DNA from: an uncultured Dehalococcoidia bacterium | GTDB lineage: Bacteria > Chloroflexota > Dehalococcoidia > UBA2247 > RBG-13-53-26 | Reading direction: 5' to 3' | Length of the DNA: 64,000 nt | Assembly: GCA_964617695.1 (NCBI GenBank) | Contig: CAZTYW010000001.1 | Span: forward strand, 11,684-75,683 | Shown here: one piece after another, positions 25,211 to 54,237 of the stretch | Position numbering within the stretch: position 1 is the stretch's first letter | Layout of the letters: the number at the start of each line of letters is the position of its first letter | Position numbers and translations under genes: made by a program | The notes under the pieces: model-generated | What the model was told of the DNA's origin: nothing | What the model saw: the letters and a program-made list of their open reading frames with translations, nothing else | Databases searched by the model: none

Positions 25211-26191
25211 TCATCCTCCTACCTGAGTCATGAATCGTCCTTGTGGCACAGATCCCTGTGCCACCCGATGACCTTCCGGTTTCGCAGCTATGGCCTCCAG
25301 TATCAGGTGTCCTACATCCTCAGAAGACGCCCCCCGCCGTAGGGCACATTTCAGGTCCAACTCCTGATCAGACAGAAGACAAGGTAGCAGCTTCCCATCG
25401 GCCGTAAGCCGCAGCCGATTGCACCTGAAGCAAAAATGCTCGCTGACCGGGGTTATGAAGCCAATAGTGCCCTCTGCACCTGGAAGACGATAGTACTTGG
25501 CTGGGCCGACGCCCACCAGCGGCGAGCAAGGCTCGAGGTCTCCCAGGGGAGCAAGCCTCTGCCACATCTCCTCAGCAGATACGAATTCCGGAACAGCCGT
25601 GATTCTCTGTATGAGGGGCATCAGCTCGATGAACCGCACATGCCAACCTTCCCTGCTGAGCCAGGCGAAGTCGACGAGTTCATCATCGTTGAGACCACGC
25701 ATGACCACCACGTTTATCTTGACTGGCTCGAGTCCTAGCCTCCGGGCCTCCGTAATGCCTGCCAATACTTCGGGCAGCCTGTCATATCCCGTGACTCGCT
25801 CAAACCTTTCCCTCCTCAGGCTATCGAGACTGACGTTCACGCGCCTCAGACCCGATTCTTTCAGCTCCGCTGCCTGGCCTTTGAGCAGTACGCCATTCGT
25901 GGTCAGGGAGATGTCATCGATCCCATCGATTGACGCCAGCATCCTCACCAGACTCGCCAGGCCCAGCCTCACCAGCGGTTCGCCACCGCTGATCCTAACC
26001 TTGCCAATGCCCACCTGCGCCGCCGCCTGGACCACCAGAGCGATCTCTTCATAAGTGAGGAGGTCCGAATGTTGCTTCAGCCGAATCCCATCAGCAGGCA
26101 TGCAGTACACGCAGCGAAGATTGCAGCGGTCAGTAACGGAGATACGCAGGTAATTCACAGGACGCTGGAATGAATCCGACACTCCACTCAC
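25211..26191 (-). CDS. moaA: GTP 3',8-cyclase (radical SAM)
   Basis: LRISVTDRCNLRCVYCMP (CxxxCxxC), ..RISGGEPLVR.., C-terminal FCFRCNRLRLTADGKL..CL and terminal GG. Confidence 0.93.
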   Translation of the reverse strand: MSGVSDSFQRPVNYLRISVTDRCNLRCVYCMPADGIRLKQHSDLLTYEEIALVVQAAAQVGIGKVRISGGEPLVRLGLASLVRMLASIDGIDDISLTTNGVLLKGQAAELKESGLRRVNVSLDSLRRERFERVTGYDRLPEVLAGITEARRLGLEPVKINVVVMRGLNDDELVDFAWLSREGWHVRFIELMPLIQRITAVPEFVSAEEMWQRLAPLGDLEPCSPLVGVGPAKYYRLPGAEGTIGFITPVSEHFCFRCNRLRLTADGKLLPCLLSDQELDLKCALRRGASSEDVGHLILEAIAAKPEGHRVAQGSVPQGRFMTQVGG

Positions 26192-26194
26192 CGG

Positions 26195-26800
26195 CTAGCC
26201 TCCCGCTGCATACCTCTCCAGAAAGCGAAGAGCCTTCCTCAAGGCTTCGCCCCTGTGACTCACCCGGTTCTTATCCTCGATCGAGAGCTCCGCCATGGTC
26301 TTGCCCATTTCAGGCAGGTAGAAAATCGGATCATACCCAAAACCCTGGCTCCCCCTCGGCTCAAAAGCGATAATCCCCCTGCATTCGCCTTCACAAACGC
26401 CCACCAGGTCTGACATTGATGCAATGGCAATCACACACCTGAACCGGGCTGAGCGCTGCTCCCAAGGGACCCCGTCGAGGCGCGATAGCACAAAGGCGAT
26501 CCTCCCTGCATCAGAAGCATCCTCTCCGGCGTAACGGGCAGACAGAGGGCCAGGTTCGCCTCCCAGGGCATCTACTTCGAGCCCCGAATCGTCAGCCATC
26601 ACCAGACATGGCCTGTCAGTGGCGTAGGCGATCGCCTTCAGCCTGGCATTTTCTTCCAGAGTGCACCCTGTTTCACTTACCTCCAGGCTTGCACCCTCTG
26701 CCGCCAAACTGGTCAACTCAAACGGAGCACCTTGGAGAAGCAGAGAGTATTCCCTTATCTTGGCTGGGTTTCTGGTGGCAATGAGTAGCTTCGGGTTCAC
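26195..26800 (-). CDS. rdgB: non-canonical purine NTP pyrophosphatase (RdgB/HAM1)
   Basis: L.IATRN..K..E....L.......DDSGLEVDALGG.PG..SARYAG.......GFGYDPIF......KT.AEL....KN..SHRG.A. Confidence 0.88.
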   Translation of the reverse strand: MNPKLLIATRNPAKIREYSLLLQGAPFELTSLAAEGASLEVSETGCTLEENARLKAIAYATDRPCLVMADDSGLEVDALGGEPGPLSARYAGEDASDAGRIAFVLSRLDGVPWEQRSARFRCVIAIASMSDLVGVCEGECRGIIAFEPRGSQGFGYDPIFYLPEMGKTMAELSIEDKNRVSHRGEALRKALRFLERYAAGG

Positions 26801-27891
26801 AGGTCTACGAATCTTGGCTGCAGCTTCTTCATCACCTCAGGCATGGTTGTGTACTCCATCTCTTCCAGAGGAAGCCGATGAGGCTCGAACGGACCATGGC
26901 GACGCAAGTACTCGGCAACCTCGTTCGCCCACTGGCGCGCGCGGTCGAAGGCCAGATCATCAAACATGTCCCGTGGTCCCACCAACATGCCCGCCGAAAG
27001 CTGGAACCCATAGCAGATCACCCTGGGGGGGCCATCAAACCTGGAAGGATTGGCCTGCCTTTGGGCCGTGGGCATGAGCGGGCCATTGTGCGAGCCGCGC
27101 ATCCAGCCCTCTACCATCTGAGGCATGGCGAATGGTTCAAGAATCTCGCCAACTGCGGGGAAATTCCCTTGCGATCGCACGATGCATACAGGGTCGTCTT
27201 TCCCCACATATCGGCCGGCAATCAAAGCCAGGCGCTGGGTTGAGGAAACAGCCGCTACATCACCTGTGTCGCGGTGGTAGACCGCCTTGACCACATAGCG
27301 ACTGGGGGCGCCCACAAACACCAGCATATCGTATGTTTCGTCAGGAGCGTTAAAGGTGATCTTCTTGCTCTCTTTGACATCGTGCACTTCGAACGCGAAG
27401 CCGGAATGCATGTTCGAGGCAATCACCAGTCCGATGGTGTTGAAGGGATCGGCAAACATCCTGTACAGTGGCATATTCCACGCCCCTGAAGAGGTCTTGT
27501 CCGCCATGAATATCAATACCGTCTCAGCCTGTCGTTCATCAATCTGCATTTCGGCCACACCGGGCCCCATGCCCTTGACATTGCCGGAGAACGCCTCCGC
27601 AAGGAGGTCCTGACCTGCCCCATGCAGCTTCAGCTTCCTTGCCACACTGGTGCATTCCACAAAGGTATCCCAGGCCAGCTTGTGTATGCGGTCACTTTCC
27701 TCCCCGGACTCGTGCGTCATGATCAACTCAACGTCATCGCCGCAGTTGGTCACATGAAAATCCGCCAGCAGTCCATCCTTTCTGGCAGCCTGTAGACATT
27801 CCTGAGCTCTGTTCAGAACCTCGGGATGGGAACTGGAATGGCCTACCCAGCCACCGACATCCGCCTTAATCACACTCAATGTGATCCCCAT
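26797..27891 (-). CDS. fbp: fructose-1,6-bisphosphate aldolase/phosphatase (class V FBPase)
   Basis: N-terminus ITLSVIKADVGGWVGHSSSHPEVL. About 364 aa in length. Matches the bifunctional archaeal/deep-branching bacterial FBP A/P family as I recall it. Confidence 0.85.
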   Translation of the reverse strand: MGITLSVIKADVGGWVGHSSSHPEVLNRAQECLQAARKDGLLADFHVTNCGDDVELIMTHESGEESDRIHKLAWDTFVECTSVARKLKLHGAGQDLLAEAFSGNVKGMGPGVAEMQIDERQAETVLIFMADKTSSGAWNMPLYRMFADPFNTIGLVIASNMHSGFAFEVHDVKESKKITFNAPDETYDMLVFVGAPSRYVVKAVYHRDTGDVAAVSSTQRLALIAGRYVGKDDPVCIVRSQGNFPAVGEILEPFAMPQMVEGWMRGSHNGPLMPTAQRQANPSRFDGPPRVICYGFQLSAGMLVGPRDMFDDLAFDRARQWANEVAEYLRRHGPFEPHRLPLEEMEYTTMPEVMKKLQPRFVDL

Positions 27892-31277: not shown

Positions 31278-33227
31278 ATGACCTTCGGATACGCCGGGAA
31301 GCTCCTGAGACTGGACCTATCTGCAGGAAGCATCTCCAGGCTCTCCACGCCTGACTACGCAGACGATTTCCTGGGCGGCAGAGGCCTTGGCGCCAAGGTC
31401 TACTGGGACGAGGTGCCGCCCGAGGCAGGCGCGCTCGACGCTGAAAACAGGTTGGTATTCGCCACCGGTCCCCTGGCTGGCTTGCCCACGATAGGCGCTT
31501 CACGCTGGCAGGTCTGCGGCAAGTCCCCGGCCCACCGCCCGAAGCAGTTCTCGTACTGCAATCTGGGAGGAAGATGGGGCGCTGATCTGAAGTTTGCCGG
31601 CTATGACGCCATTGTGGCCCATGGCAAATCGGAGAAACCCGTCTATCTCCTCATCGCCAAGGACGCCATCGAAGTCAGGGACGCCTCTGCCCTGTGGGCC
31701 CAGGGCGCCATTGAGACCAGGCAGACCCTCAAAAGGGAACTTGGCGACTTTGCCAGAGTAGTCGCCATCGGTCCCGCTGGCGAAAACATGGCGGCGATGT
31801 CAACGTTGCTTGCCGAGAACGATGCCAGCGGTTCAGCAGGCATGGGGGCGGTTATGGGTTCGAAGAAGCTCAAGGCCATCGTAGTACTCGGCGGTGATCG
31901 GAAGCCCGTGGACGTTGCCCACCCTGAAAGGCTGCGAGAGTTGATTCGGTACTACCGCGGACTGCGCAGAATCACTCTGAGATCGTCATCCTACCGATTC
32001 TCAACCGATAAGGTGCCCAGTCTCAGCCATACCAAGATGAGGCGGATGGATCCGTGCTACGGGTGCCTGGGATGCTCAAGGAGGTCATACCAGGCGGACG
32101 ACGGCAGTAAGGGCAAGTTCATGTGCAACTCGGCCATGTTCTATCAGCCCTGGGCCGTAAGCTATTACGGCGAATGGAATGACGTGCCCTTCCACGCCAC
32201 CAGGCTTGTCAACACATACGGCCTGGACTCAAAGGCGGTTGACCGCATGATCAGTTGGCTCCACAGCTGCTATGAAGCCGGCATCCTGACCGAGGAGAAC
32301 ACAGGGATACCACTGTCGAAGATAGGCAGCCTGGCATTCATAGAGACTCTGGTCCGGAGACTGTCGTTTCGTCAGGGCTTCGGAGATATCCTGGCCAGAG
32401 GTCTGGAAGAGGCTGCAAAGTCCATCGGTCCTGCGGCCGAAGAGCATGTCGGCAGAATCGGTTATGTAGCCATGCCGGGGTACAAAGACATCTATGGCCC
32501 AAGACTCTACATCACCAATGCCTTGTTCTACGCCATGGAACCCAGGATACCAATACAGCAACTCCACGAGGTGGGGACCCTGATCCCTAAATGGGTGTCT
32601 TGGGTCCGCGGGACTCCAGGCGCCAGTGCTTCATCCGAAGTGGTGCGTAGAATAGCCGAGAGGTTCTGGGGCGGGGAGCCGGCGGCCGATTTCTCCACCT
32701 ACGAGGGCAAGTCGCTGGCGGCCAGGATGATACAGGACCGACAGACCGCCAAGGAGTGCCTGATTCTTTGCGACTACGTCTGGCCGATTACGGACCTGGA
32801 GACAACCGACGACCATGTCGGCGATCCTACTCTGGAGAGTCAGATCCTATCCGCCGTCACCGGAAAGGATGTGGATGAAGACGGACTATACGGCATAGGC
32901 GAGCGAGTCTTTAATCTGCAAAGAGCGATACTGGTCAGGGAGGGCCACAGGGGACGGGACTTCGATCGCCTACCCGAATACTGCTTCACCGAGCCGCTGC
33001 AATTCGACTTCATGAACCCGGACTGCCTGGTGCCAGGCAAGGACGGAGAGGTGGTCTCTCGCAAGGGTGCGGTTCTCGACAGGAACGAATTCGAGCGGAT
33101 GAAAGACCGTTACTACCAGATCAGGGGATGGGACGTGACAACTGGTCTTCAAACCCGGGAATCCCTGGAGAGGCTGGGGCTGAGGGAGGTTGCCGATGAC
33201 CTCGAGCGCAGAGGCCTGCTTGCGTAG
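31278..33227 (+). CDS. aldehyde:ferredoxin oxidoreductase family protein (W/Mo-pyranopterin, [4Fe-4S]), paralog 1
   Basis: AOR N-domain FGYAGKLLRLDLS...FLGGRGLGAKVYWDEV...GPLAG......SRW.VCGKSP; Cys cluster DPCYGCLGC...KFMCNS; later ECLILCDYVWP; C-terminal YYQIRGWD..TGLQTRESLERLGL. AGGAGG RBS. Confidence 0.85.
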   Translation: MTFGYAGKLLRLDLSAGSISRLSTPDYADDFLGGRGLGAKVYWDEVPPEAGALDAENRLVFATGPLAGLPTIGASRWQVCGKSPAHRPKQFSYCNLGGRWGADLKFAGYDAIVAHGKSEKPVYLLIAKDAIEVRDASALWAQGAIETRQTLKRELGDFARVVAIGPAGENMAAMSTLLAENDASGSAGMGAVMGSKKLKAIVVLGGDRKPVDVAHPERLRELIRYYRGLRRITLRSSSYRFSTDKVPSLSHTKMRRMDPCYGCLGCSRRSYQADDGSKGKFMCNSAMFYQPWAVSYYGEWNDVPFHATRLVNTYGLDSKAVDRMISWLHSCYEAGILTEENTGIPLSKIGSLAFIETLVRRLSFRQGFGDILARGLEEAAKSIGPAAEEHVGRIGYVAMPGYKDIYGPRLYITNALFYAMEPRIPIQQLHEVGTLIPKWVSWVRGTPGASASSEVVRRIAERFWGGEPAADFSTYEGKSLAARMIQDRQTAKECLILCDYVWPITDLETTDDHVGDPTLESQILSAVTGKDVDEDGLYGIGERVFNLQRAILVREGHRGRDFDRLPEYCFTEPLQFDFMNPDCLVPGKDGEVVSRKGAVLDRNEFERMKDRYYQIRGWDVTTGLQTRESLERLGLREVADDLERRGLLA

Positions 33228-33351: not shown

Positions 33352-34110
33352 ATGAAATCGATGTTTGACCTCACCGACAGGGTGGCCATCGTAACCGGGG
33401 CCGGCAGGGGGATAGGGAAAGCCTTATCGCTGGGGCTGGCCCACTTCGGCGCAAATGTAGTTGTTGCGGCTCGAACAGCAGGCGACGTTGACAAGACTGC
33501 GGACGAGATTCGCTCTCTGGGCAGAAGGGCCCTGGCTGTGCCTGCTGACGTGCAAGAAAAAGAGCAGGTGGCCGATATGGTGGCCAGGACCCTGGCAGAG
33601 TTCAACAGGATTGACATTCTGATCAACAACGTGGGCGGCGGTCCTCGGAGAGCGGCCTTTGACCAGGGCCAGAGGTTCTGGGATGCCATCATGCGGCTGA
33701 ACCTCACCACCACCCTGTTATGCAGCAAGGCAGTGGCACAGGTGATGAAAGAGCAGGGCAAAGGGAACATAATAAACATCGCTTCCGCAATCGGGCGAGG
33801 CAATATGCCCGAGTTCTCAGCCTACGCGGTTTCAAAGGATGGGGTGATCACCTTGACGGCTCGCCTGGCCATCGAATGGGCCAAAGACAACATTCGGGTC
33901 AACGCCATAGCTCCGGGCTTTGTGGCGACTGAAATGGCTGCCGAGTGGTTCAAGACAGACCCGGACTTGAGCCAGGAGATGAAGAGGATTCCTATGGGTC
34001 GGCCGGCCAAGCCGGAGGACCTCATTGGCGGAGCGATCTATCTTGCTTCAGACGCTTCTGAATACGTTACGGGCAAGACGCTTTACATCGACGGCGGGCT
34101 TTTCCACTAG
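33352..34110 (+). CDS. short-chain dehydrogenase/reductase (SDR-A)
   Basis: RVAIVTGAGRGIGKAL, NNVG, S..YAVSKDG (YxxxK), PMGR...PEDL.G...YLASDAS.YVTG. TAGGAGG RBS. Confidence 0.85.
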   Translation: MKSMFDLTDRVAIVTGAGRGIGKALSLGLAHFGANVVVAARTAGDVDKTADEIRSLGRRALAVPADVQEKEQVADMVARTLAEFNRIDILINNVGGGPRRAAFDQGQRFWDAIMRLNLTTTLLCSKAVAQVMKEQGKGNIINIASAIGRGNMPEFSAYAVSKDGVITLTARLAIEWAKDNIRVNAIAPGFVATEMAAEWFKTDPDLSQEMKRIPMGRPAKPEDLIGGAIYLASDASEYVTGKTLYIDGGLFH

Positions 34111-34208: not shown

Positions 34209-35009
34209 CTACCACATTACCAACCCCCCGCTGACGCTGATGGTCTGGCCGGTGAGAAAAGAAGCACGTTCAGAGGCCAGGAACAGCACGCAGTCTGCTA
34301 TGTCCTCTGGCTTTCCCAGGCGCCTGAGAGGCCAGTACTTCATCGCCTTTTGAAGCACGTCAGAGCTATAGGTCTCATATCCCCATTTCTTCCAGAAGCT
34401 TTCCTGCCCGACATGGTCGGGACTATCCGGAACAATCCAGCCTGGCGACACAACGTTGACGTTTATCCCATGGCGACCCAACTCCCAGGCCAGCGCCCTC
34501 GAAAGGGCGATGACCCCTCCCTTGGCCCCACCATAGACAGCCAGGTTGATTGCCCCAAACCCGGACTGCCCCGAAGCTGAGGCGATGTTGACGATCTTGC
34601 CGTATTTGCGTCCAATCATATGATCGACAACCCCTCTGACGCAGTTGATCACACTCCAGTAGTTCAGCCTTATCTCCTTGTCCCACTCATCCCTCGGCTT
34701 CTCCATAAATGGCCGGTTGCGCGGCGTACCACCAGCATTGTTGACCAGCACGTCTATGTTGCCAAAAGTCTGCAGAGTCTCGTTCACCGTCGCCTGCACC
34801 GAGTCCCAATCAGTCACGTCCGTCCTGACAAACACCGCCTTGCCACCCAGCCGGTTCGCCTCATCCACCACCCTGCACCCCTGCTCCGCGTCTACCTCAG
34901 CATTTACGATATTTGAACCTTCCCGGGCAAAGCCCAGGACGATGCCCCGCCCGATATTGGAGCCTCCGCCCGTAACGATGACTGTCTTACCAGCCAAACC
35001 CAGGTCCAC
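34209..35009 (-). CDS. short-chain dehydrogenase/reductase (SDR-B)
   Basis: GKTVIVTGGGSNIGRG, NNAG, S..YGGAKGG, LGKPEDIA..V.FLAS..ASF.TGQ. I chose the GTG at 35009, preceded by AAAGGAGAG; the longer ORF to 35171 overlaps the upstream gene. Confidence 0.82.
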   Translation of the reverse strand: MDLGLAGKTVIVTGGGSNIGRGIVLGFAREGSNIVNAEVDAEQGCRVVDEANRLGGKAVFVRTDVTDWDSVQATVNETLQTFGNIDVLVNNAGGTPRNRPFMEKPRDEWDKEIRLNYWSVINCVRGVVDHMIGRKYGKIVNIASASGQSGFGAINLAVYGGAKGGVIALSRALAWELGRHGINVNVVSPGWIVPDSPDHVGQESFWKKWGYETYSSDVLQKAMKYWPLRRLGKPEDIADCVLFLASERASFLTGQTISVSGGLVMW

Positions 35010-35029: not shown

Positions 35030-35590
35030 TTATTCCTCTATCCTGAACTCCCACTGGCAGGCGACCTCGTCTGGCCCTGGGCGAGGAGCCACCTTGAGAG
35101 GCTTGACCTGGATGGCCGGATTGACAGCGGCAGCGTATGCTTTCATGCCCTCGAATTCGAGGACCTGGCACGTCTGGGCTATCCGCTCCGGGTTATCTCT
35201 CTCCAGGGCTGCCAGCGCCGGACATTCGAACACGGTTAGTATGGCGTGATTCCTGTTCTTGAGGTCAAACTCGTACCTGTACAGGTCCTGCGCGAAAGAC
35301 CCGATCAGTTGACACGTCTTCGCATAGGCCTCCACGTCATTCCCTCGAATATTTGCCGCCTCCATCGCCCATTTCATCTCGTACTTGCCTATTCTTGTCC
35401 AGTTCGCCAGCAGGCACTCGAACGCAACTTCATCACCCAGCCTGTTGCGAACCTGCTCTTGCCAGTAGACATCCAGCACCAGCAACTCCCTGCAATACGC
35501 CTTCAGCAGCTTCGCCAATACGTCCTTGGAGAAGTCTTCATACCTGACATTGGGCACGAACTTCCCGCTGTAGTCCCTCAATTCCTGCAT
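35030..35590 (-). CDS. uncharacterised 186-aa protein, tandem paralog 3 of 3 (three invariant Cys)
   Basis: MQELRDYSGKF...EDFSK...NHAILTVFEC...ER...TCQVLE...NPAIQV..LKVAPR.....EVACQWEF. ATG 35590 is preceded by GGAGAGGAG. The 61-aa upstream extension of the ORF is low-complexity and absent from the paralogs. Confidence 0.7.
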   Translation of the reverse strand: MQELRDYSGKFVPNVRYEDFSKDVLAKLLKAYCRELLVLDVYWQEQVRNRLGDEVAFECLLANWTRIGKYEMKWAMEAANIRGNDVEAYAKTCQLIGSFAQDLYRYEFDLKNRNHAILTVFECPALAALERDNPERIAQTCQVLEFEGMKAYAAAVNPAIQVKPLKVAPRPGPDEVACQWEFRIEE

Positions 35591-35748
35591 CCGATTCTCC
35601 TCTCCAGTACCGTTTACCGAAACCCCTCCGAGCCCCTCATCTCCTGACTCGTCCGCGCGCCTCCGTTCCGTCCCGTGTCCGGTGTGATCAGCAGTCACCA
35701 GCCCGATCGCAGCAACATCCACGGCACGACTCCGTCGTGCGCCGCAAT

Positions 35749-36306
35749 TCACTCCCCCAACTTCAACTCCCACTGACAGGCAATCTCTTCCTGACTCTGG
35801 CGTGGGGGCAGCTTCAAGGCTGTCACCTTTATCCTGGGATTGATGAGATACTTCCTTATCGCTGCTTCTTCCAGTTCATAGCAGATCGGCTGTATCATCT
35901 CCGGGGCTTCCCTTTCGTAGTATATGAGCGAGCGGCACTGCGTTATGGTCATGATAACGTGGTTCGGACTCTTGATGTCGTACTCCACCGGATACAGCGG
36001 CCCAATGTTGTTGTCCAGAGGCAGTTGGAGACATTTGAGGGAATCCAGCACCGTGTTTAGCTGAATGCCGGCAATCTTGGGATACCGCGGATTGACCTGC
36101 GCCGCCACCTTCTCCCAGGCTTCGAGATTGCATTCGTTCGCCACATCGAAACCGCATCTCTTCTTTACGGCATCGTACCAGATGCCGGCCATACGAATCC
36201 ATGCAAACTGCCACACCGTCATGAGCTTCAGCAGGAATTCCTTGGAGAAATCCTCGAACGTCAGGTCCGGCTTGAATGGGCCGCTATAGTCGTTTAGCTC
36301 CGTCAT
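35749..36306 (-). CDS. uncharacterised 185-aa protein, tandem paralog 2 of 3
   Basis: MTELNDYSGPF...EDFSK...NHVIMTITQC...ER...ICYELE...NPRIKVTALKLPPRQSQEEIACQWEL. ATG 36306 is preceded by AAAGGAAAGGGGGG. Confidence 0.7.
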   Translation of the reverse strand: MTELNDYSGPFKPDLTFEDFSKEFLLKLMTVWQFAWIRMAGIWYDAVKKRCGFDVANECNLEAWEKVAAQVNPRYPKIAGIQLNTVLDSLKCLQLPLDNNIGPLYPVEYDIKSPNHVIMTITQCRSLIYYEREAPEMIQPICYELEEAAIRKYLINPRIKVTALKLPPRQSQEEIACQWELKLGE

Positions 36307-36367
36307 ATCACAGCCCCCCTTTCCTTTACTTGACCTTTCCTGGCACATACCTTGTCCTATCCAACGG

Positions 36368-36931
36368 CTAGTCCCCCAGTCTGAACTCCCATTGGCAGGC
36401 GATCTCGTCGGCGCTTTTGCGTGGTGGCAGTTTCAGCGCCCTTACCTTAATCCTGGGATTGAACAGGCCGGCGGCTGCCTGAAAGCCCTCCACATCGAGC
36501 ACCTCACAGGCGTGCTTCTGCATCTCCCTCTCTCCGTGTCTCTCATAATACTCAAGCCCGAGACACCGCCTGATGGTCAGTATGCCGTAGTTCTTGTCCT
36601 TGAGCTCACACTCAAACTCTGGGAATATCGCCCCGCCGCCCGGATCTGTTTGAATGAACTTGAGAACACTGGCAACGTCATCGCCCCATATGTTGAGCGC
36701 CTCCCTCACCCGACCCACCTCCAATGCAGTCTCTCGCCTCCACACCTCCGCGTCCAGCTCGCGAGCCATGTCCTCACCAAACCTCTCCCTGATGAGTGAG
36801 TACCAGATGCCGTCCAGACCTACGTAGAGCTTCCCCGCTGCCTGCCAAAGCCGCACGAGTGCCGCTTTTGAGAAGTCATCCAGCCTCAGATTCCGGCGGA
36901 ACTCTCCGCTGTAGTCCTCCAAGTCTTCCAT
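36368..36931 (-). CDS. uncharacterised 187-aa protein, tandem paralog 1 of 3
   Basis: MEDLEDYSGEF...DDFSK...NYGILTIRRC...ER...ACEVLD...NPRIKVRALKLPPRKSADEIACQWEF. ATG is preceded by GAAGGAGG. Confidence 0.72.
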   Translation of the reverse strand: MEDLEDYSGEFRRNLRLDDFSKAALVRLWQAAGKLYVGLDGIWYSLIRERFGEDMARELDAEVWRRETALEVGRVREALNIWGDDVASVLKFIQTDPGGGAIFPEFECELKDKNYGILTIRRCLGLEYYERHGEREMQKHACEVLDVEGFQAAAGLFNPRIKVRALKLPPRKSADEIACQWEFRLGD

Positions 36932-37214
36932 GTTCGACCTCCTTCAGCAATCCTATTGCCTCTCTGGTCTTGCCGGCGGGGCACGCGCAGCCGGATGGCC
37001 ATCACGCTGCACCTGCGCCGAGACACCTGTAGCACAAGGAAAAACGGCCGCCACCTGTTACTACGGCGGCAGCCCAGCCATCATAGCCCAGAAGCCTTAG
37101 ATCTGTGACTCTGCGCCCCCTGGTTTGCCAGGGTTTGCCTTTTTCACCGCATCGCGCCAAGCTTATCTTGGCCTTTCCTGGACTTCTTATAACCCAGCCG
37201 CAACGGACAAGTCA

Positions 37215-37244
37215 AGGCACGGTCAGCAACAGCAAAGGTATAAT
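37215..37244 (+). promoter_or_regulatory. promoter-like element upstream of AOR2 (AGGCACG-N17-TATAAT)
   Basis: AGGCACG at 37215-37221 and TATAAT at 37239-37244, 60 nt before the ATG. It parallels the AOR1 element. Confidence 0.4.
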
Positions 37245-37304: not shown

Positions 37305-39221
37305 ATGAAGCCTTTCGGATACGCCGGGAAGATACTCAGAGTGGACCTGTCTTCGAGACAGGTAGCCGATTCCCCGACCCTGGACTACAGCAATACGTTT
37401 CTGGGCGGAAGGGGCATCGCCACCAAGATATATTGGGATGAGGTGCTACCCGAAGTCAAGGCGTTAGATGCCGGCAACAGGCTGATAATGGCTGTCGGCC
37501 CGCTGGCCGGCATCCCCGTCCTGGGCGGCTCAAGATGGACCGTCTGCGGCAAGTCACCTCTCCGAACCCCTGAACACTTCTCGCACTGCAATCTCGGCGG
37601 ACGGTGGGGTGCTGAACTCAAGTTCGCCGGCTACGATGCGGTTGTCTTCCAGGGTAGATCGGAACAGCCGGCGTACCTCTTCCTGCACGATGGAGTTGCA
37701 GAGCTGAAGGATGCCTCAGCCCTGTGGGGCAAGGGCGCCATCGAGACCCGTGACATCCTCAAGAGAGAGTTGGGCGGCTCGGTGAAAGTGGTAGCTATCG
37801 GCCCCGCCGGGGAAAACCTGGTGACTATGGCAAGCCTGCTGGCAGATAACGATGCCAGCGGCTCCGGCGGCCTGGGTGCTACCATGGGGGCCAAGAGGCT
37901 AAAGGCAATTGCAGTCCAGGGGACGGCCAGGGGAGTAAGGGTAGCTCAGCCTGACAGACTGAGCCAGATCACCAGGTACTTCCGTGGACTGGGCAAAGGC
38001 GTCTTCACTGCGTGGGGAACGGACTACCTGCCGACGGGACCCAAAGTCAAGAAAGACCCATGCTATGGCTGCCTGGGCAACTGTCTCAGGATGACGTACG
38101 GCACCGACGACGGCAAAAGGGGCAAGTTCATGTGTCAGTCAGCCATGTTCTATCAACCGTGGTCTTACCGGTATTACGGACAACAGAATGACGTCCCCTT
38201 CTACGCCAACAGGGTCTGCGACGACTACGGGCTGGACACATGGGCAATAGACGTAATGATTGCCTGGCTGAACAGGTGCCGCAAAGCCGGCATCCTGACC
38301 GACAACATTGCGGGCCTTCCCCTGTCCAAACTGGGCACTCCCGAGTTCATTGAGACCCTGGCCAGACAAATATCCCTGAGGGAAGGCTTCGGGGACATCC
38401 TGGCGGACGGGCTGCCCAGGGCTGCAAGCACGGCCGGGGCCGAGGCGACGCAGCAAATCAAGCACGGCGACCCCTACGAGCCCAGGCTATACATCACCAC
38501 GGCACTGCTGTGGGCCATGGAGCCAAGAGAGCCAATACAGCAGCTGCACGAGGTGGGACTGCCTGTGGCCCAATGGGTAAGCTGGGTCAAGAAGGTTGAA
38601 GGCGCCTACGTCTCAAGCGATGTGATTAGAGCCATTGCCAGGAGATTCTGGGGAAGTGAAATTGCCGCTGATTTCTCGACGTGCGAAGGCAAGGCCCTGG
38701 CAGCAAAGATGATCCAGGACCGCGAGTATGCCAAGGAATGTCTTGTCCTCTGCGACTGGGTATTCCCCGTCATGGACACCAGAAATAGCGAGGACCATGT
38801 CGGTGATCCCACTCTGGAAAGCCAGATACTGTCTGCCGTCACAGGAAACGAAACGGACGAACGGGCGCTCTATAGCACGGGGGAGACCGTCTTCAATCTG
38901 CAGAGGTCAATACTGGTCAGGGAGGGTCACAAAGCCAGGGAAGATGACAGACTTCCTGATGACTGGCACAGCGTGCCGCTGGCCAAGGGAATCACGAACG
39001 TCGAATGCCTGGTACCCGGCAAAGACGGAGAGGTGACATCCAGGAAGGGCGCGGTGGTCGACAGGGCAGAATTCGAAAAGATGAAAGATGAATACTATCG
39101 GCTGCGCAGGTGGGAGGTGGCTACCGGCCTGCAGACCAGGGATAACCTGGAGGGCCTGGGGCTGGGAGAGGTGGCCGCGGACCTGGAACAAAGAGGGCTC
39201 ATGGCAAGTCAACAGGAATAG
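37305..39221 (+). CDS. aldehyde:ferredoxin oxidoreductase family protein, paralog 2
   Basis: Aligns with AOR1 along its whole length (FGYAGKILRVDLS...FLGGRGIATKIYWDEV...SRWTVCGKSP...NLGGRWGAELKFAGYDA...DPCYGCLGNC...KFMCQS...ECLVLCDWVFP...YYRLRRWE..TGLQTRDNLEGLGL). GGAAGGAG RBS. Confidence 0.85.
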   Translation: MKPFGYAGKILRVDLSSRQVADSPTLDYSNTFLGGRGIATKIYWDEVLPEVKALDAGNRLIMAVGPLAGIPVLGGSRWTVCGKSPLRTPEHFSHCNLGGRWGAELKFAGYDAVVFQGRSEQPAYLFLHDGVAELKDASALWGKGAIETRDILKRELGGSVKVVAIGPAGENLVTMASLLADNDASGSGGLGATMGAKRLKAIAVQGTARGVRVAQPDRLSQITRYFRGLGKGVFTAWGTDYLPTGPKVKKDPCYGCLGNCLRMTYGTDDGKRGKFMCQSAMFYQPWSYRYYGQQNDVPFYANRVCDDYGLDTWAIDVMIAWLNRCRKAGILTDNIAGLPLSKLGTPEFIETLARQISLREGFGDILADGLPRAASTAGAEATQQIKHGDPYEPRLYITTALLWAMEPREPIQQLHEVGLPVAQWVSWVKKVEGAYVSSDVIRAIARRFWGSEIAADFSTCEGKALAAKMIQDREYAKECLVLCDWVFPVMDTRNSEDHVGDPTLESQILSAVTGNETDERALYSTGETVFNLQRSILVREGHKAREDDRLPDDWHSVPLAKGITNVECLVPGKDGEVTSRKGAVVDRAEFEKMKDEYYRLRRWEVATGLQTRDNLEGLGLGEVAADLEQRGLMASQQE

Positions 39222-47256: not shown

Positions 47257-48390
47257 ATGGAAACGTGGTCCCCCAACGGTAATGAGGGTAACGACGTGGA
47301 GAAGCAAGACGCAAGAACGCTGATCCACATGCTTAGCGATAGCAACTGGCTCATTCGCTGCGACGCCTGCCAGGCTCTCGAAAGGCTTGGCGACATTCTG
47401 GCTGTGGAGCCACTGGCCAGGTTGGTCCTTGAAGACGAGAGCAACCTTGTACGCGCCCAGGCAGCCCAGGCGCTGGGGAGAATCGGCACCAGCCAGGCTG
47501 TTGAGCCGCTTGTCAAGGCACTGTCCGATGCCGACTGCTTCGTGCGGGCCCACGCAGCCCAGGCACTCGGGAGAATCGGTGACACCGAGGCTATTGAACA
47601 TCTCATCGGCACCTTAAACGACAGCAATGATCTTGTGCGCGGGCGCGCCATCCAGGCGATGGGCAAAATCGGCGATGGTCACGCTGCAGAAGCCGTGGCT
47701 GCTCTGCTTTCGGACAAGGAGATGTGTATCCATGCCGTACACGCGTTGGCCAGGATTGGCCAACCTGCCATCAGGCCTATGATGAAGGCAGTCGCCAACA
47801 ATCATGATCTTTGCATGCTTGCCGCAGAAGCGCTGTGTCGGATGGGCGAGGCAGCGATTGATGGGATTGCTGAAGAGTTGCTTCGCGGCGAGGATGCCTA
47901 CATACGGATGGCCGCGGCAAAGGCGCTTGGCCGCCTGCGGGATAGCACGGCCATCAGGCCGCTGATCGAAGCTGCTGCTGGCAACTATGCTGTGTGGGGC
48001 TACGCTACTGAGGCCTTGAGGGAGATGGGCGAGCCTGCTGTGGAGCCTCTCGTCGAGGCACTGAATGACGTTAATGCCAGCACGCAGGAGTGCGCCGCTC
48101 GGATGCTGGGAGCCGTTGGCAGTGACGACGTCGTGGGCCCACTGATCGATTCCCTCGGCAGTGACGAATCCACCGTGCGTGCCACAGCCGCCGAAGCGCT
48201 GGGAAGTATCGGCGACAAGCGCGCCGTCAAGCCACTCATTGACGCCACCAGGGACACCGAGGTGCGCGTGGCCGAGAACGCAGCAATAGCGTTGGGGAGA
48301 ATCAGCGCTCCCCGGAACGCACTATCCGGCCAGGACCTGGCCGATATTCACATACGCTGGAGGGCTCAGTACCGGCCATTCAGCGACTAG
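47257..48390 (+). CDS. HEAT-repeat (PBS-lyase HEAT-like) protein, about 10-11 repeats
   Basis: Repeating ~31-aa unit VR..AA.ALG.IGD..A(V/I)EPL(I/V).AL.D.d. GAGAGGGGAGG RBS. Confidence 0.85.
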   Translation: METWSPNGNEGNDVEKQDARTLIHMLSDSNWLIRCDACQALERLGDILAVEPLARLVLEDESNLVRAQAAQALGRIGTSQAVEPLVKALSDADCFVRAHAAQALGRIGDTEAIEHLIGTLNDSNDLVRGRAIQAMGKIGDGHAAEAVAALLSDKEMCIHAVHALARIGQPAIRPMMKAVANNHDLCMLAAEALCRMGEAAIDGIAEELLRGEDAYIRMAAAKALGRLRDSTAIRPLIEAAAGNYAVWGYATEALREMGEPAVEPLVEALNDVNASTQECAARMLGAVGSDDVVGPLIDSLGSDESTVRATAAEALGSIGDKRAVKPLIDATRDTEVRVAENAAIALGRISAPRNALSGQDLADIHIRWRAQYRPFSD

Positions 48391-52632: not shown

Positions 52633-54237
52633 CTAAGAGCGAGCACACTCCAACAGGGTTCCCATCACTCTGTCAGAGGGATTGAGGTGGGGTGGCTTCA
52701 AGTGAGCCAAGTCAGCACCCGCTGCTCGCTGTATGGAAATGTATTCTCGAAATGCCCCTGCAGGAAGTAGCGTCACCTCAATAGGTTGTAGGCCTATCAT
52801 GGTCTCCAGCTCTGCATATGACCTGTCCAGCTTCCGTAGCTGCTGATGTATGGCCCGAGCCACCTGATCCGGACGTCTGAAACCGTTGCAATTCTGCTTG
52901 AGTTCAAGGTATACCCGCAGCACCGGCTTCTCTCCTGCCTCCTTGCACGCCGTCCACTCCTCGTACTCTAACCCCGCATTCTCGATGGCGCGCCAGATGG
53001 TCTTCTCGGTCAGCCGTGTAAACCCGGCCAGGTCAATCAGGCCATCGACTCGGCACTCGTACTGCATCTGAGGGATGTCTATGTTTAGAGCCTCGTTTCG
53101 CAGTGAAGTTATCTTGATCAGATCGCCTATTCGGTATCTGACGAAAGCACCACCGCGAAAGTTGGTGATGACTATTTCGTAGTTCTGCCCGGCCTGGACC
53201 TCGTCCAGGAGCAGCGTTTTCGGCCGATAACCCGCATCCATCCTCGACCTGCGAGACTCGTTCTCTGGAATGAACTCCAGCAAGTTCAGAAATGGGATGA
53301 AGGTCATGTCCTGATAGTCCCAGGTCTGCATGGCTATGACTACGCCCTCGGTGCAGCCATATAGATCGAGAGGATATCTACCCCACATTTCCTTGATCTT
53401 GTTCTTGTAGATCGAGGCGTCAGTGCCCGCAACAGCGATACCCTTCAGTGACCACAGGTCCTTGGGCAGAATGGCACGACGCTCCAACTTGCTCTTCGCA
53501 AGTGCTTTTGCCAGGCGAAGAGCAAGTCTCGGTTTTGACATCATCGGCAGGATATCCTTGAGACCAATGCTGCGATTGAGACGCTCGCCCACACCAACAA
53601 GCACGCCAGGAAGGCCAAAAAACAGGTCCATCCCTTCGGAAAGGGCCATCTGGAAGCCTTTCTGGACTCTGTCCTCAAAGCCCATTTTCTCCGCCTCGTC
53701 CAGCGGGGGGAGAAACTCCAAAGGCAACTCCCGTTCTGCCAAACGCCCGATCGTTCCTGTGAGGTAGGGCGGAGGAGCCAACGCATAGAGGATTTTCTCA
53801 TGACCACCAAAACTGATGTCACCGCGCTCTTTGCAGGTGCAGAAGATCAAGTAGGCGAAAACCAGGTTGCCCAGCTCGTCGTATAGCTTCTGTGTCATGG
53901 GAGCCCATTTGAAGCCAAACTCCCCCGAATTGCCCGAGGTATGGGTCCACAGCGCAGGCTTCTCAGGCAGCACGTCCTCCCTTCGATCCAGCAGATAGCA
54001 GGCATAGTCGGCATAGGTCGTGAGCGGCACCTGCTCCCGAAACTCTTCCACACTGCTGGGCTTTGCCCCCCGCATCACCTTTTCTCCTAACTCGCATCCT
54101 TTCAGGAGCTCCAACTGCTCCAGCAGCAGTCGCCGCTGTATGCCCATGCACTGGTCTATGCTGAGATCAATGTAACCGCAGCACATCTGCCACAGCTCAT
54201 CGTACCTTCCCTGGTTCAGCAGCCTTATTGCGGACAT
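52633..54237 (-). CDS. GH3-like / ANL-superfamily adenylate-forming enzyme
   Basis: 534 aa. Three adenylation motifs in GH3-like spacing: WTHTSGNSGEFGFKWAP (motif 1), LDLYGCTEGVV (YGxTE), VRYRIGDLIKI (YRxGD). N-terminal FREQVPLTTYADY resembles bacterial GH3 homologues. Confidence 0.55.
   Translation of the reverse strand: MSAIRLLNQGRYDELWQMCCGYIDLSIDQCMGIQRRLLLEQLELLKGCELGEKVMRGAKPSSVEEFREQVPLTTYADYACYLLDRREDVLPEKPALWTHTSGNSGEFGFKWAPMTQKLYDELGNLVFAYLIFCTCKERGDISFGGHEKILYALAPPPYLTGTIGRLAERELPLEFLPPLDEAEKMGFEDRVQKGFQMALSEGMDLFFGLPGVLVGVGERLNRSIGLKDILPMMSKPRLALRLAKALAKSKLERRAILPKDLWSLKGIAVAGTDASIYKNKIKEMWGRYPLDLYGCTEGVVIAMQTWDYQDMTFIPFLNLLEFIPENESRRSRMDAGYRPKTLLLDEVQAGQNYEIVITNFRGGAFVRYRIGDLIKITSLRNEALNIDIPQMQYECRVDGLIDLAGFTRLTEKTIWRAIENAGLEYEEWTACKEAGEKPVLRVYLELKQNCNGFRRPDQVARAIHQQLRKLDRSYAELETMIGLQPIEVTLLPAGAFREYISIQRAAGADLAHLKPPHLNPSDRVMGTLLECARS

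Follow-up and report, generated by a model that had tools for sequence, protein, structure and literature searches.

The window analysed here is a stretch of 64,000 nucleotides from an uncultured Dehalococcoidia bacterium (assembly GCA_964617695.1, contig CAZTYW010000001.1), and we are concerned with three neighbouring genes in it, called A, B and C, which encode members of the Pfam family DUF6125. They lie as follows:

36368..36931, minus strand: DUF6125 paralog A, 187 aa, the first gene of the operon
35749..36306, minus strand: DUF6125 paralog B, 185 aa, with its start (MTELND) inside a longer open reading frame (ORF)
35030..35590, minus strand: DUF6125 paralog C, 186 aa, with the start MQELRD

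The initial annotation, made from the letters of the window alone, had described three consecutive minus-strand genes of 187, 185 and 186 aa, and its coordinates agree with the ORF list. The sequence GGAGAGGAG constitutes a good Shine-Dalgarno (ribosome-binding) site ahead of the MQELRD start of C. A 247-aa form of C beginning at a GTG codon at 35773 was considered and discarded, as its extension overlaps B, is of low complexity and is missing in the orthologs. The spacer between B and C (window 35591-35748) measures 158 nt, versus about 20 nt in the related locus L046, and holds a short hairpin (GCACGAC/GTCGTGC) without a T-run. The three proteins can indeed be aligned with each other, the alignment being nearly gap-free, and the computed identities are 41% for A/B, 39% for A/C and 37% for B/C (BLASTP E 5e-39 for the last pair), so that the previous estimate by eye of about one-third was right in order of magnitude but slightly low, and the similarity is far beyond chance. 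All the motifs previously listed as shared were found in A, B and C by regular-expression searches, with the correction that the spacer in one of them is PR-x4-E and not PR-x5-E, and the same searches confirmed the C-x17/18-C-x34/36-C spacing of the shared cysteines. No transmembrane segment was detected, as had been stated, the highest mean Kyte-Doolittle value over 19 residues being at most 1.2 in the three proteins. The window contains no other DUF6125 copies than these three.

The assignment to DUF6125 (PF19620) is clear, with scores of 57.3, 50.8 and 37.2 bits for A, B and C, respectively, against a gathering score of 27, and with near full-length matches that run from profile position 2 or 3 to 163 or 164 of 164. 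The three proteins are members of this family, a stand-alone domain of about 185 aa, and these end-to-end matches leave no difference between the Pfam family and the window proteins. Homologs are annotated by NCBI as 'DUF6125 family protein', and no NCBIfam family model matched A, B or C. The family is large, as an exhaustive hidden Markov model (HMM) search at E<=1e-3 recovered 1,006 clusters at 50% identity. Searches of the PDB sequences with protein A and with a profile of 49 sequences gave chance-level matches only. ATC_hydrolase (PF14196) was the only second family found recurrently, in 29 of 49 homologs at E<=0.1 (best E 9.8e-6), and B and C had no match to it at E<=1. On A the match is collinear, pairing residues 43-146 with positions 12-115 of the 145 of the profile, and spans C123 and C142. 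These matches, sub-threshold but recurrent, point to a remote kinship only between DUF6125 and ATC_hydrolase. The guess in the initial annotation of a 'DUF-type / ATC-hydrolase-like' family has thus held up well, given that the DUF6125 gathering score is passed by all three proteins and that ATC_hydrolase is the recurrent second-best family. ATC hydrolase converts L-2-amino-thiazoline-4-carboxylate to carbamoyl-cysteine. Three conserved cysteines have been attributed to that family too (PMC5847659); however, there is no carbamoyl-cysteine amidohydrolase gene near the DUF6125 genes in the window, nor any sign of thiazoline substrates for the window proteins.

The most conspicuous feature of the family is a triad of cysteines, located at positions 123/142/179 in A, 124/142/177 in B and 123/141/178 in C. 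These are conserved in 99, 99 and 100% of 145 non-redundant domains from 105 loci, and in 97, 95 and 91% of 151 domains, which are those of the best 150 of the 50%-identity cluster representatives (97% for the third cysteine when gapped sequences are excluded). The initial annotation had proposed that loss of these residues in wider homologs would speak against its reading; they are conserved at 91-100% and kept in Actinobacteria and Firmicutes. When Chloroflexota, Actinobacteria, a Firmicute and distant representatives are compared, only W64, C123, C142, P170, C179 and W181 are invariant, and the family signature made up by the Cys triad, W64, W181 and the PPR turn is present in A, B and C. 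Several polar residues (D6, Y7, S8, K91, Q94, E130, R171 and E182) are also conserved across paralogs that are 35-40% identical. In contrast to what would be expected of a ferredoxin, a regular-expression search of A, B and C found no CxxCxxC or CP motif, and the cysteines are 17-36 residues apart. Neither A, B and C nor the family alignments contain a conserved histidine; the only histidines of A, H132 and H140, are not shared with B or C.

The AlphaFold2 model of A is very confident (pLDDT, the per-residue confidence score, 96; predicted template-modelling score, pTM, 0.89) and starts with three to four helices, after which come a β-hairpin, two more helices and another pair of strands. When this model was compared with the PDB using Foldseek, the top groups were the V4R domains of MopR, PoxR and DmpR, H-NOX proteins and TRAPPC3/Bet3, and a second, independent model returned the same list. 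For both models, the matches to 7VQF, 5FRV/W/X/U and 5KBx had probabilities of 0.96-0.99 and TM-scores of 0.41-0.46. The predicted fold of DUF6125, an N-terminal helical layer on a four-stranded sheet as in V4R, H-NOX and TRAPPC3/Bet3, is therefore well supported by modelling. HNOB, V4R and ATC-hydrolase domains have been described as related, V4R and ATC hydrolase sharing three conserved cysteines (Galperin et al., PMC5847659), and in the predicted DUF6125 fold one cysteine sits where strand 2 ends, one on the second turn of the long helix and one where strand 4 begins, a topology compatible with their convergence on one site.

The V4R domains of MopR, PoxR and DmpR are the best structural matches to the model and would have the same two-layer helix/sheet fold. 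These sensors carry a Cys-rich Zn site beside a conserved Trp, have a buried ligand pocket and dimerise; in DmpR the Zn ligands are Cys151, Glu172, Cys177 and Cys185, and the conserved Trp lies between the Zn and the phenol pocket (PMC7264223). DUF6125 has the invariant W64 and W181. However, DUF6125 gives no match to the Pfam V4R and XylR_N families at E<=1 and none to PDB sequences, it stands alone without an AAA+ or DNA-binding domain (fusions were found only to a second DUF6125 domain), and it does not show the V4R Zn pattern Cys-x(20-25)-Glu-x(2-4)-Cys-x7-Cys, lacking a Glu 3-5 residues before the second Cys. An equivalent Zn site could possibly be formed in DUF6125 from other positions. 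The match to TRAPPC3/Bet3 reaches TM-scores of up to 0.5; these proteins have hydrophobic inner cavities, form homo- or heterodimers of paralogs and use a Zn ion to tether the sheet to the helix, with four cysteines as the Zn ligands in their Asgard homologs. In the Asgard TRAPPC3/V4R proteins, the positions of the Zn ligands drift, yet in every case the site ties the sheet to a helix and gives rise to a ligand cavity, and dimerisation takes place via the N-terminal helices (PMC10933270). In contrast to DUF6125, whose context is bacterial and catabolic, TRAPPC3/Bet3 proteins are eukaryotic or archaeal, act in vesicle tethering and are unrelated in sequence. By analogy with the V4R/TRAPPC3 proteins, the three cysteines of DUF6125 most likely hold a Zn ion. 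The metal binding by the Cys triad suggested in the initial annotation is at present only hinted at by the fold relatives.

The initial annotation had also spoken of a triplication. Taken as a single recent event this does not stand, because each paralog is far closer to its orthologs in other genomes (79-86%) than to its neighbours. A is 79-86% identical to its orthologs in L046, L007 and L051 (86% in L046/L049 and 79% in L051/L055), B is 79-84% identical to those in L046, L051 and L007, and C is 82% identical to those in L046 and L051 and 58-71% to singletons elsewhere. Moreover, L007 and L052 carry only A and B, C being absent from L007, and the order A-B-C-SDR (where SDR is a short-chain dehydrogenase/reductase gene) is kept in L046 and L051 with a fourth copy in front. 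A, B and C thus appear, with good support from sequence comparison, to be ancient paralogs. DUF6125 arrays and fused two-domain proteins are common in Dehalococcoidia, and A, B and C do not stand out within a catalogued family for which tandem multiplicity is normal. The fusions, of about 385-390 aa, make up 34 of 149 cluster representatives (for example P0121-P0128; L004 8682-9839; L001 15149-16309). An AlphaFold2 model of one of them had a pTM of 0.85 despite a disordered linker; therefore, the two domains pack confidently in the model, which suggests a fixed pseudo-dimer. The idea of a hetero-oligomer put forward in the initial annotation is so far only hinted at by these natural fusions and this model, and the fusions back it indirectly, because the fold relatives are also dimers. 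Between the orthologs of two genes of the window module described below (AOR2 and SDR2), L039 contains at 2348-2539 a DUF6125 remnant (residues ~1-32 plus 153-186), which looks like an internal deletion in that metagenome-assembled genome.

The DUF6125 genes are embedded in a module of oxidoreductase genes, bordered by ftsA/ftsZ on one side and by an ABC/FtsX exporter on the other. The additional genes of the module are:

37305..39221, plus strand: AOR2, 638 aa, tungsten-type aldehyde:ferredoxin oxidoreductase (AOR) family with AFOR_N and AFOR_C matches, divergent from the operon
34209..35009, minus strand: SDR2, 266 aa, short-chain dehydrogenase/reductase (adh_short_C2, E 2.7e-56), 20 nt downstream of C and the probable last gene of the operon
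33352..34110, plus strand: SDR1, 252 aa (adh_short_C2, E 7.9e-60), downstream of AOR1 and convergent with SDR2
31278..33227, plus strand: AOR1, 649 aa, AOR-family paralog, 60% identical to AOR2

The order is thus AOR1 and SDR1 on the plus strand, SDR2, C, B and A on the minus strand, and AOR2 on the plus strand, and A, B and C appear from this arrangement to be co-transcribed with SDR2. The nearest PDB relatives of AOR2 are the Pyrococcus AOR (1AOR) and BamB, which are about equidistant from it. Orthologs of AOR2 (65-73% identical) flank DUF6125 arrays in L004, L007 and L039, orthologs of AOR1 (68-71%) are found in L004 and L007, and orthologs of SDR2 adjoin the arrays of L004, L007 and L046; no SDR1 occupies the corresponding place in L007 and L046. 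The arrangement AOR2, A, B, SDR2, AOR1 is kept in L004 and L007, and that of A-B-C, SDR2 and AOR1 in L046 and L051, so that, judged by gene order, a module of AOR2, A, B, sometimes C, SDR and AOR1 is conserved in related Chloroflexota. The two AORs differ in their [4Fe-4S] motif, which is CYGCLGC (C-x2-C-x2-C) in AOR1 and CYGCLGNC (C-x2-C-x3-C) in AOR2; C-x2-C-x3-C is the usual spacing in AORs. A MoaA-type radical-SAM gene, which belongs to pterin cofactor synthesis and is relevant to both AORs, lies 5 kb upstream of the module, close to a gene for an archaeal-type class V fructose-1,6-bisphosphatase (FBPase_3); this pair is located at window 25211-26191 (minus strand) and 26797-27891 (minus strand), respectively. 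Downstream, and apparently unrelated, are genes for a GH3-family (acyl-acid amido synthetase-like) protein (window 52633-54237, minus strand) and for a 377-aa HEAT/PBS-lyase repeat protein (window 47257-48390, plus strand). Our search of the literature found nothing relevant on AOR in Dehalococcoidia.

A census of the families encoded within three genes of DUF6125 in the 105 non-redundant loci showed that SDR is the commonest neighbour (32 loci, with 24 genes directly adjacent), followed by AOR (18 loci, 13 genes directly adjacent), acyl-CoA dehydrogenase (12 loci, 10 adjacent) and the LivJ-type binding protein Peripla_BP_6 (10 loci, 10 adjacent). B12-binding proteins and mutases were found in 9 loci each and were never directly adjacent, and molybdenum (Mo) oxidoreductases and reductases of the old-yellow-enzyme type were each present in 6 loci, with 4 adjacent genes. 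A second conserved arrangement exists in about ten Dehalococcoidia loci (among them L009, L010, L013, L090, L092, L095, L096, L098 and L100), in which an SDR gene and five or six tandem DUF6125 genes face genes for an acyl-CoA dehydrogenase, a B12-binding protein and a methylmalonyl-CoA-mutase-like protein. In L013 and L090, NuoF-like and formate-dehydrogenase-like genes are located upstream.

Homologs outside the Chloroflexota provide an independent view of this context. A tblastn search against plasmids found DUF6125 homologs in Nonomuraea and Monoglobus only, and the Nonomuraea match led to a large actinobacterial clade that is 73-97% identical across Actinomycetes and Acidimicrobiia. Its members have 223-240 aa and a C-terminal extension ending in PPMRDGTPH (L128 6992-7657; L130-L133), and most of them lack a precomputed Pfam match. 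In all five actinobacterial genomes examined, the homolog lies beside an SDR gene and a 3-hydroxyisobutyrate-dehydrogenase-like gene, and in three of them (Nonomuraea, Amycolatopsis and Actinomadura) beside an NAD-dependent aldehyde dehydrogenase gene, with a CMD-family gene also present in the Amycolatopsis and Actinomadura loci. In two Acidimicrobiia, the homolog is found beside SDR, 3-hydroxyisobutyrate-dehydrogenase-like and CMD genes plus a TetR-P450-SDR-P450-ferredoxin set. As DUF6125 and SDR recur here with a non-homologous aldehyde oxidiser, the family would be tied to a substrate pathway and not to tungsten enzymes or ferredoxin, and this actinobacterial parallel would link it to alcohol/aldehyde/acid conversion. 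A role as a dedicated AOR subunit or ferredoxin was rejected, given the pairing of the actinobacterial homologs with NAD-dependent aldehyde dehydrogenase and the many Chloroflexota copies without a nearby AOR.

The leader of the operon contains three further elements, unreported in the initial annotation in the case of the riboswitch:

37186..37215, minus strand: promoter-like TTGACT-N18-TATAAG upstream of the aptamer, weak evidence, recognised by eye and not called by the scan
37065..37149, minus strand: c-di-GMP-I riboswitch aptamer (RF01051), 65.4 bits against a gathering score of 35, E 1.5e-10, model positions 1-87 of 87
37038..37074, minus strand: intrinsic-terminator-like hairpin with a 10-bp G+C-rich stem and U5, found in the terminator scan and in the minimum-free-energy and centroid folds

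This aptamer for cyclic di-GMP (c-di-GMP) is the only Rfam match in the window, and the start codon of A follows 134 nt after its 3' end. The hairpin probably serves as the expression platform; the last 4 nt of the 3' strand of aptamer stem P2 are shared with its 5' arm, and therefore ligand binding may oppose termination. A homologous aptamer precedes the four-gene array in L046 (88-172, plus strand; 52.2 bits on RF01051), L051 (7115-7211) and L055 (2348-2444), and L046 has TTGACT-N17-TATAAC at the same relative position as the promoter-like sequence and a terminator equivalent with compensatory changes (GGGCTACCAC/GTGGTAGCCC plus a T-run). In common with GEMM-I riboswitches, the window leader matches the full model and keeps a G at the unpaired base 5' of P1, which we equate with G20 of Vc2; this base is an A in L046, and G20A is the signature of c-GAMP-binding (cyclic GMP-AMP) or bispecific GEMM-Ib variants (PMC6140456). 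In contrast to known GEMM-I riboswitches, a DUF6125 array with an SDR gene appears to be an unusual cargo; we found no such report in the literature searched, where our search for c-di-GMP riboswitches of Chloroflexi also returned nothing relevant. The aptamer was not found in other related loci, either with Rfam on 23 loci or with our own covariance model R1 on 91 sources, and general riboswitch control of DUF6125 arrays was rejected, given its presence in two lineages only.

The explanation that we favour overall, and to which we give about an even chance, is that DUF6125 proteins are dimeric Zn-Cys3 proteins that process small molecules in an alcohol/aldehyde/acid pathway. A Zn ion would pin the sheet to the helix and give form to a cavity for small molecules inside the protein, A, B and C would probably work as homo- or heterodimers, and the proteins would handle a small organic substrate of the conversion of alcohols, aldehydes and carboxylic acids. 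In the version that we prefer, this would be a metal-dependent step of the ATC-hydrolase type, that is, a water addition or ring opening making or removing a carbonyl compound, with the paralogs supplying different substrate specificities. Operon expression is probably tuned by the level of a cyclic dinucleotide. The proposed dimeric state is backed by the fusions, by the fusion model and by the known dimers among the fold relatives. We slightly prefer a catalytic role because the operon stands among enzymes, many polar residues are conserved and the actinobacterial clade is strongly conserved; a non-catalytic role as a substrate or aldehyde carrier (or sensor) is nearly as likely, because all the structural neighbours are binders.

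Several observations weigh against this favoured explanation. The closest structures are all non-enzymatic binders, which argues against its catalytic version in particular, and the Foldseek E-values are weak (>=0.02) with TM-scores of 0.4-0.5. On A, ATC_hydrolase scores 15.2 bits (E 0.04), below its gathering score of 28.1. The spatial clustering of the cysteines is a prediction from topology, their spacing is x18/x36 in DUF6125 versus x25/x7 in DmpR, and there is no clear candidate for a fourth ligand in A, B and C, Cys178 being present in only 38 of 151 relatives. Of the arrays not cut by contig ends, 65 are singletons and 29 contain 2-6 copies. The gene contexts are heterogeneous, including acyl-CoA dehydrogenase with B12 mutase, Mo-oxidoreductases, carbon monoxide dehydrogenase/acetyl-CoA synthase (CODH/ACS) and pterin methyltransferases, and the riboswitch is restricted to two closely related lineages (that of the window and that of L046/L051/L055) among about 100 loci. 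Finally, no paper naming DUF6125 and no measurement of a metal, ligand or activity for the family were found in the literature searched.

The strongest competitor, less probable than the favoured explanation but to be taken seriously, is that the proteins are binders without catalytic activity, either dimers that pass a hydrophobic or reactive intermediate (an aldehyde, for example) between SDR and AOR or aldehyde dehydrogenase, or else sequester it, or stand-alone sensors that modulate a partner, with ligands that differ by paralog. The nearest structures are phenol sensors, heme H-NOX proteins and the palmitate-binding TRAPPC3, heterodimeric sets of paralogs are typical of TRAPPC3/Bet3, and a universal conservation limited to the Cys triad, the two Trp and the PPR turn fits a structural metal site with a variable pocket; a TetR gene also adjoins the homolog in two of five actinobacterial loci. 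However, the genes are embedded among enzyme genes in their operons, neither a regulator nor an output domain is encoded in the Chloroflexota loci, the closest family by sequence takes its name from an enzyme, and both the many polar residues beyond Cys conserved in paralogs of 35-40% identity and the actinobacterial clade of 73-97% identity across two classes also speak against this reading.

It is unlikely that the proteins are Fe-S electron carriers in which the cysteines ligate a [3Fe-4S] or site-differentiated [4Fe-4S] cluster, acting as low-potential acceptors or donors for ferredoxin-dependent AORs and other nearby redox enzymes. Exactly three cysteines are invariant, the hosts are anaerobes, the window module lacks a ferredoxin gene although AORs need one, and many neighbours are ferredoxin-linked (AOR, Mo-oxidoreductase, CODH/ACS, NuoF-like). 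Nevertheless, the same Cys triad exists in aerobic Actinobacteria beside genes for an NAD-dependent aldehyde dehydrogenase and an SDR, neither of which needs ferredoxin, the ferredoxin-like motifs are missing, the Cys sites of the fold relatives hold Zn, and SDR, the commonest neighbour, uses NAD(P); it is these aerobic, NAD-linked contexts that make such a carrier less likely. Even further down in probability, to the point of being hardly credible, are H-NOX-like heme or tetrapyrrole (gas or corrinoid) binders linked to c-di-GMP signalling. In favour of this reading, H-NOX structures rank high among the fold matches, a c-di-GMP riboswitch precedes the operon, and some loci pair DUF6125 with B12-binding/mutase, pterin methyltransferase or CODH/ACS genes. 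However, a heme site of the H-NOX type is excluded, because DUF6125 has no conserved His; in addition, the inspected alignments showed no Y-x-S-x-R motif, and Pfam HNOB matched neither A, B and C at E<=1 nor 49 homologs at E<=0.1. The riboswitch, for its part, takes effect upstream of the proteins, which do not act on it in turn, and is confined to two lineages.

Going beyond the favoured explanation, it is conceivable, if rather improbable in its entirety, that the DUF6125 proteins, built on the V4R/H-NOX fold, form a class of Zn-Cys3 enzymes not recognised before, or else are obligate partners in substrate channelling. Their paralog heterodimers would work alongside tungsten AORs in anaerobic Chloroflexota or NAD-dependent aldehyde dehydrogenases in aerobic Actinobacteria, and a cyclic-dinucleotide riboswitch, of the c-di-GMP type in one lineage and c-GAMP-like (G20A) in its sister, would switch the module on in some Chloroflexota.

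The DUF6125 trio does not overturn existing knowledge. What is added here to the DUF6125 entry is a fold assignment, the conserved core of Cys3 and Trp, the occurrence of tandem arrays and of fusions, and the neighbourhood of SDR, AOR and aldehyde dehydrogenase genes, and experimenters can start from a predicted fold, a probable metal site, a hypothesis on dimers and a context of SDR and aldehyde-oxidising enzymes that is reproducible. The family has expanded strongly in the Dehalococcoidia and in other uncultured Chloroflexota, and uncultured Chloroflexota dominate anoxic sediments. If DUF6125 proteins are enzymes or carriers, they would close a gap in current models of tungsten AOR use by these organisms. 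The riboswitch would add to the few cases in which a cyclic dinucleotide controls a catabolic operon, here in a phylum whose cyclic-dinucleotide signalling has been little studied, and, should the reading of a Zn-Cys3 enzyme or channelling partner under riboswitch control prove true, second-messenger signalling would be coupled directly to tungsten-enzyme carbon catabolism.

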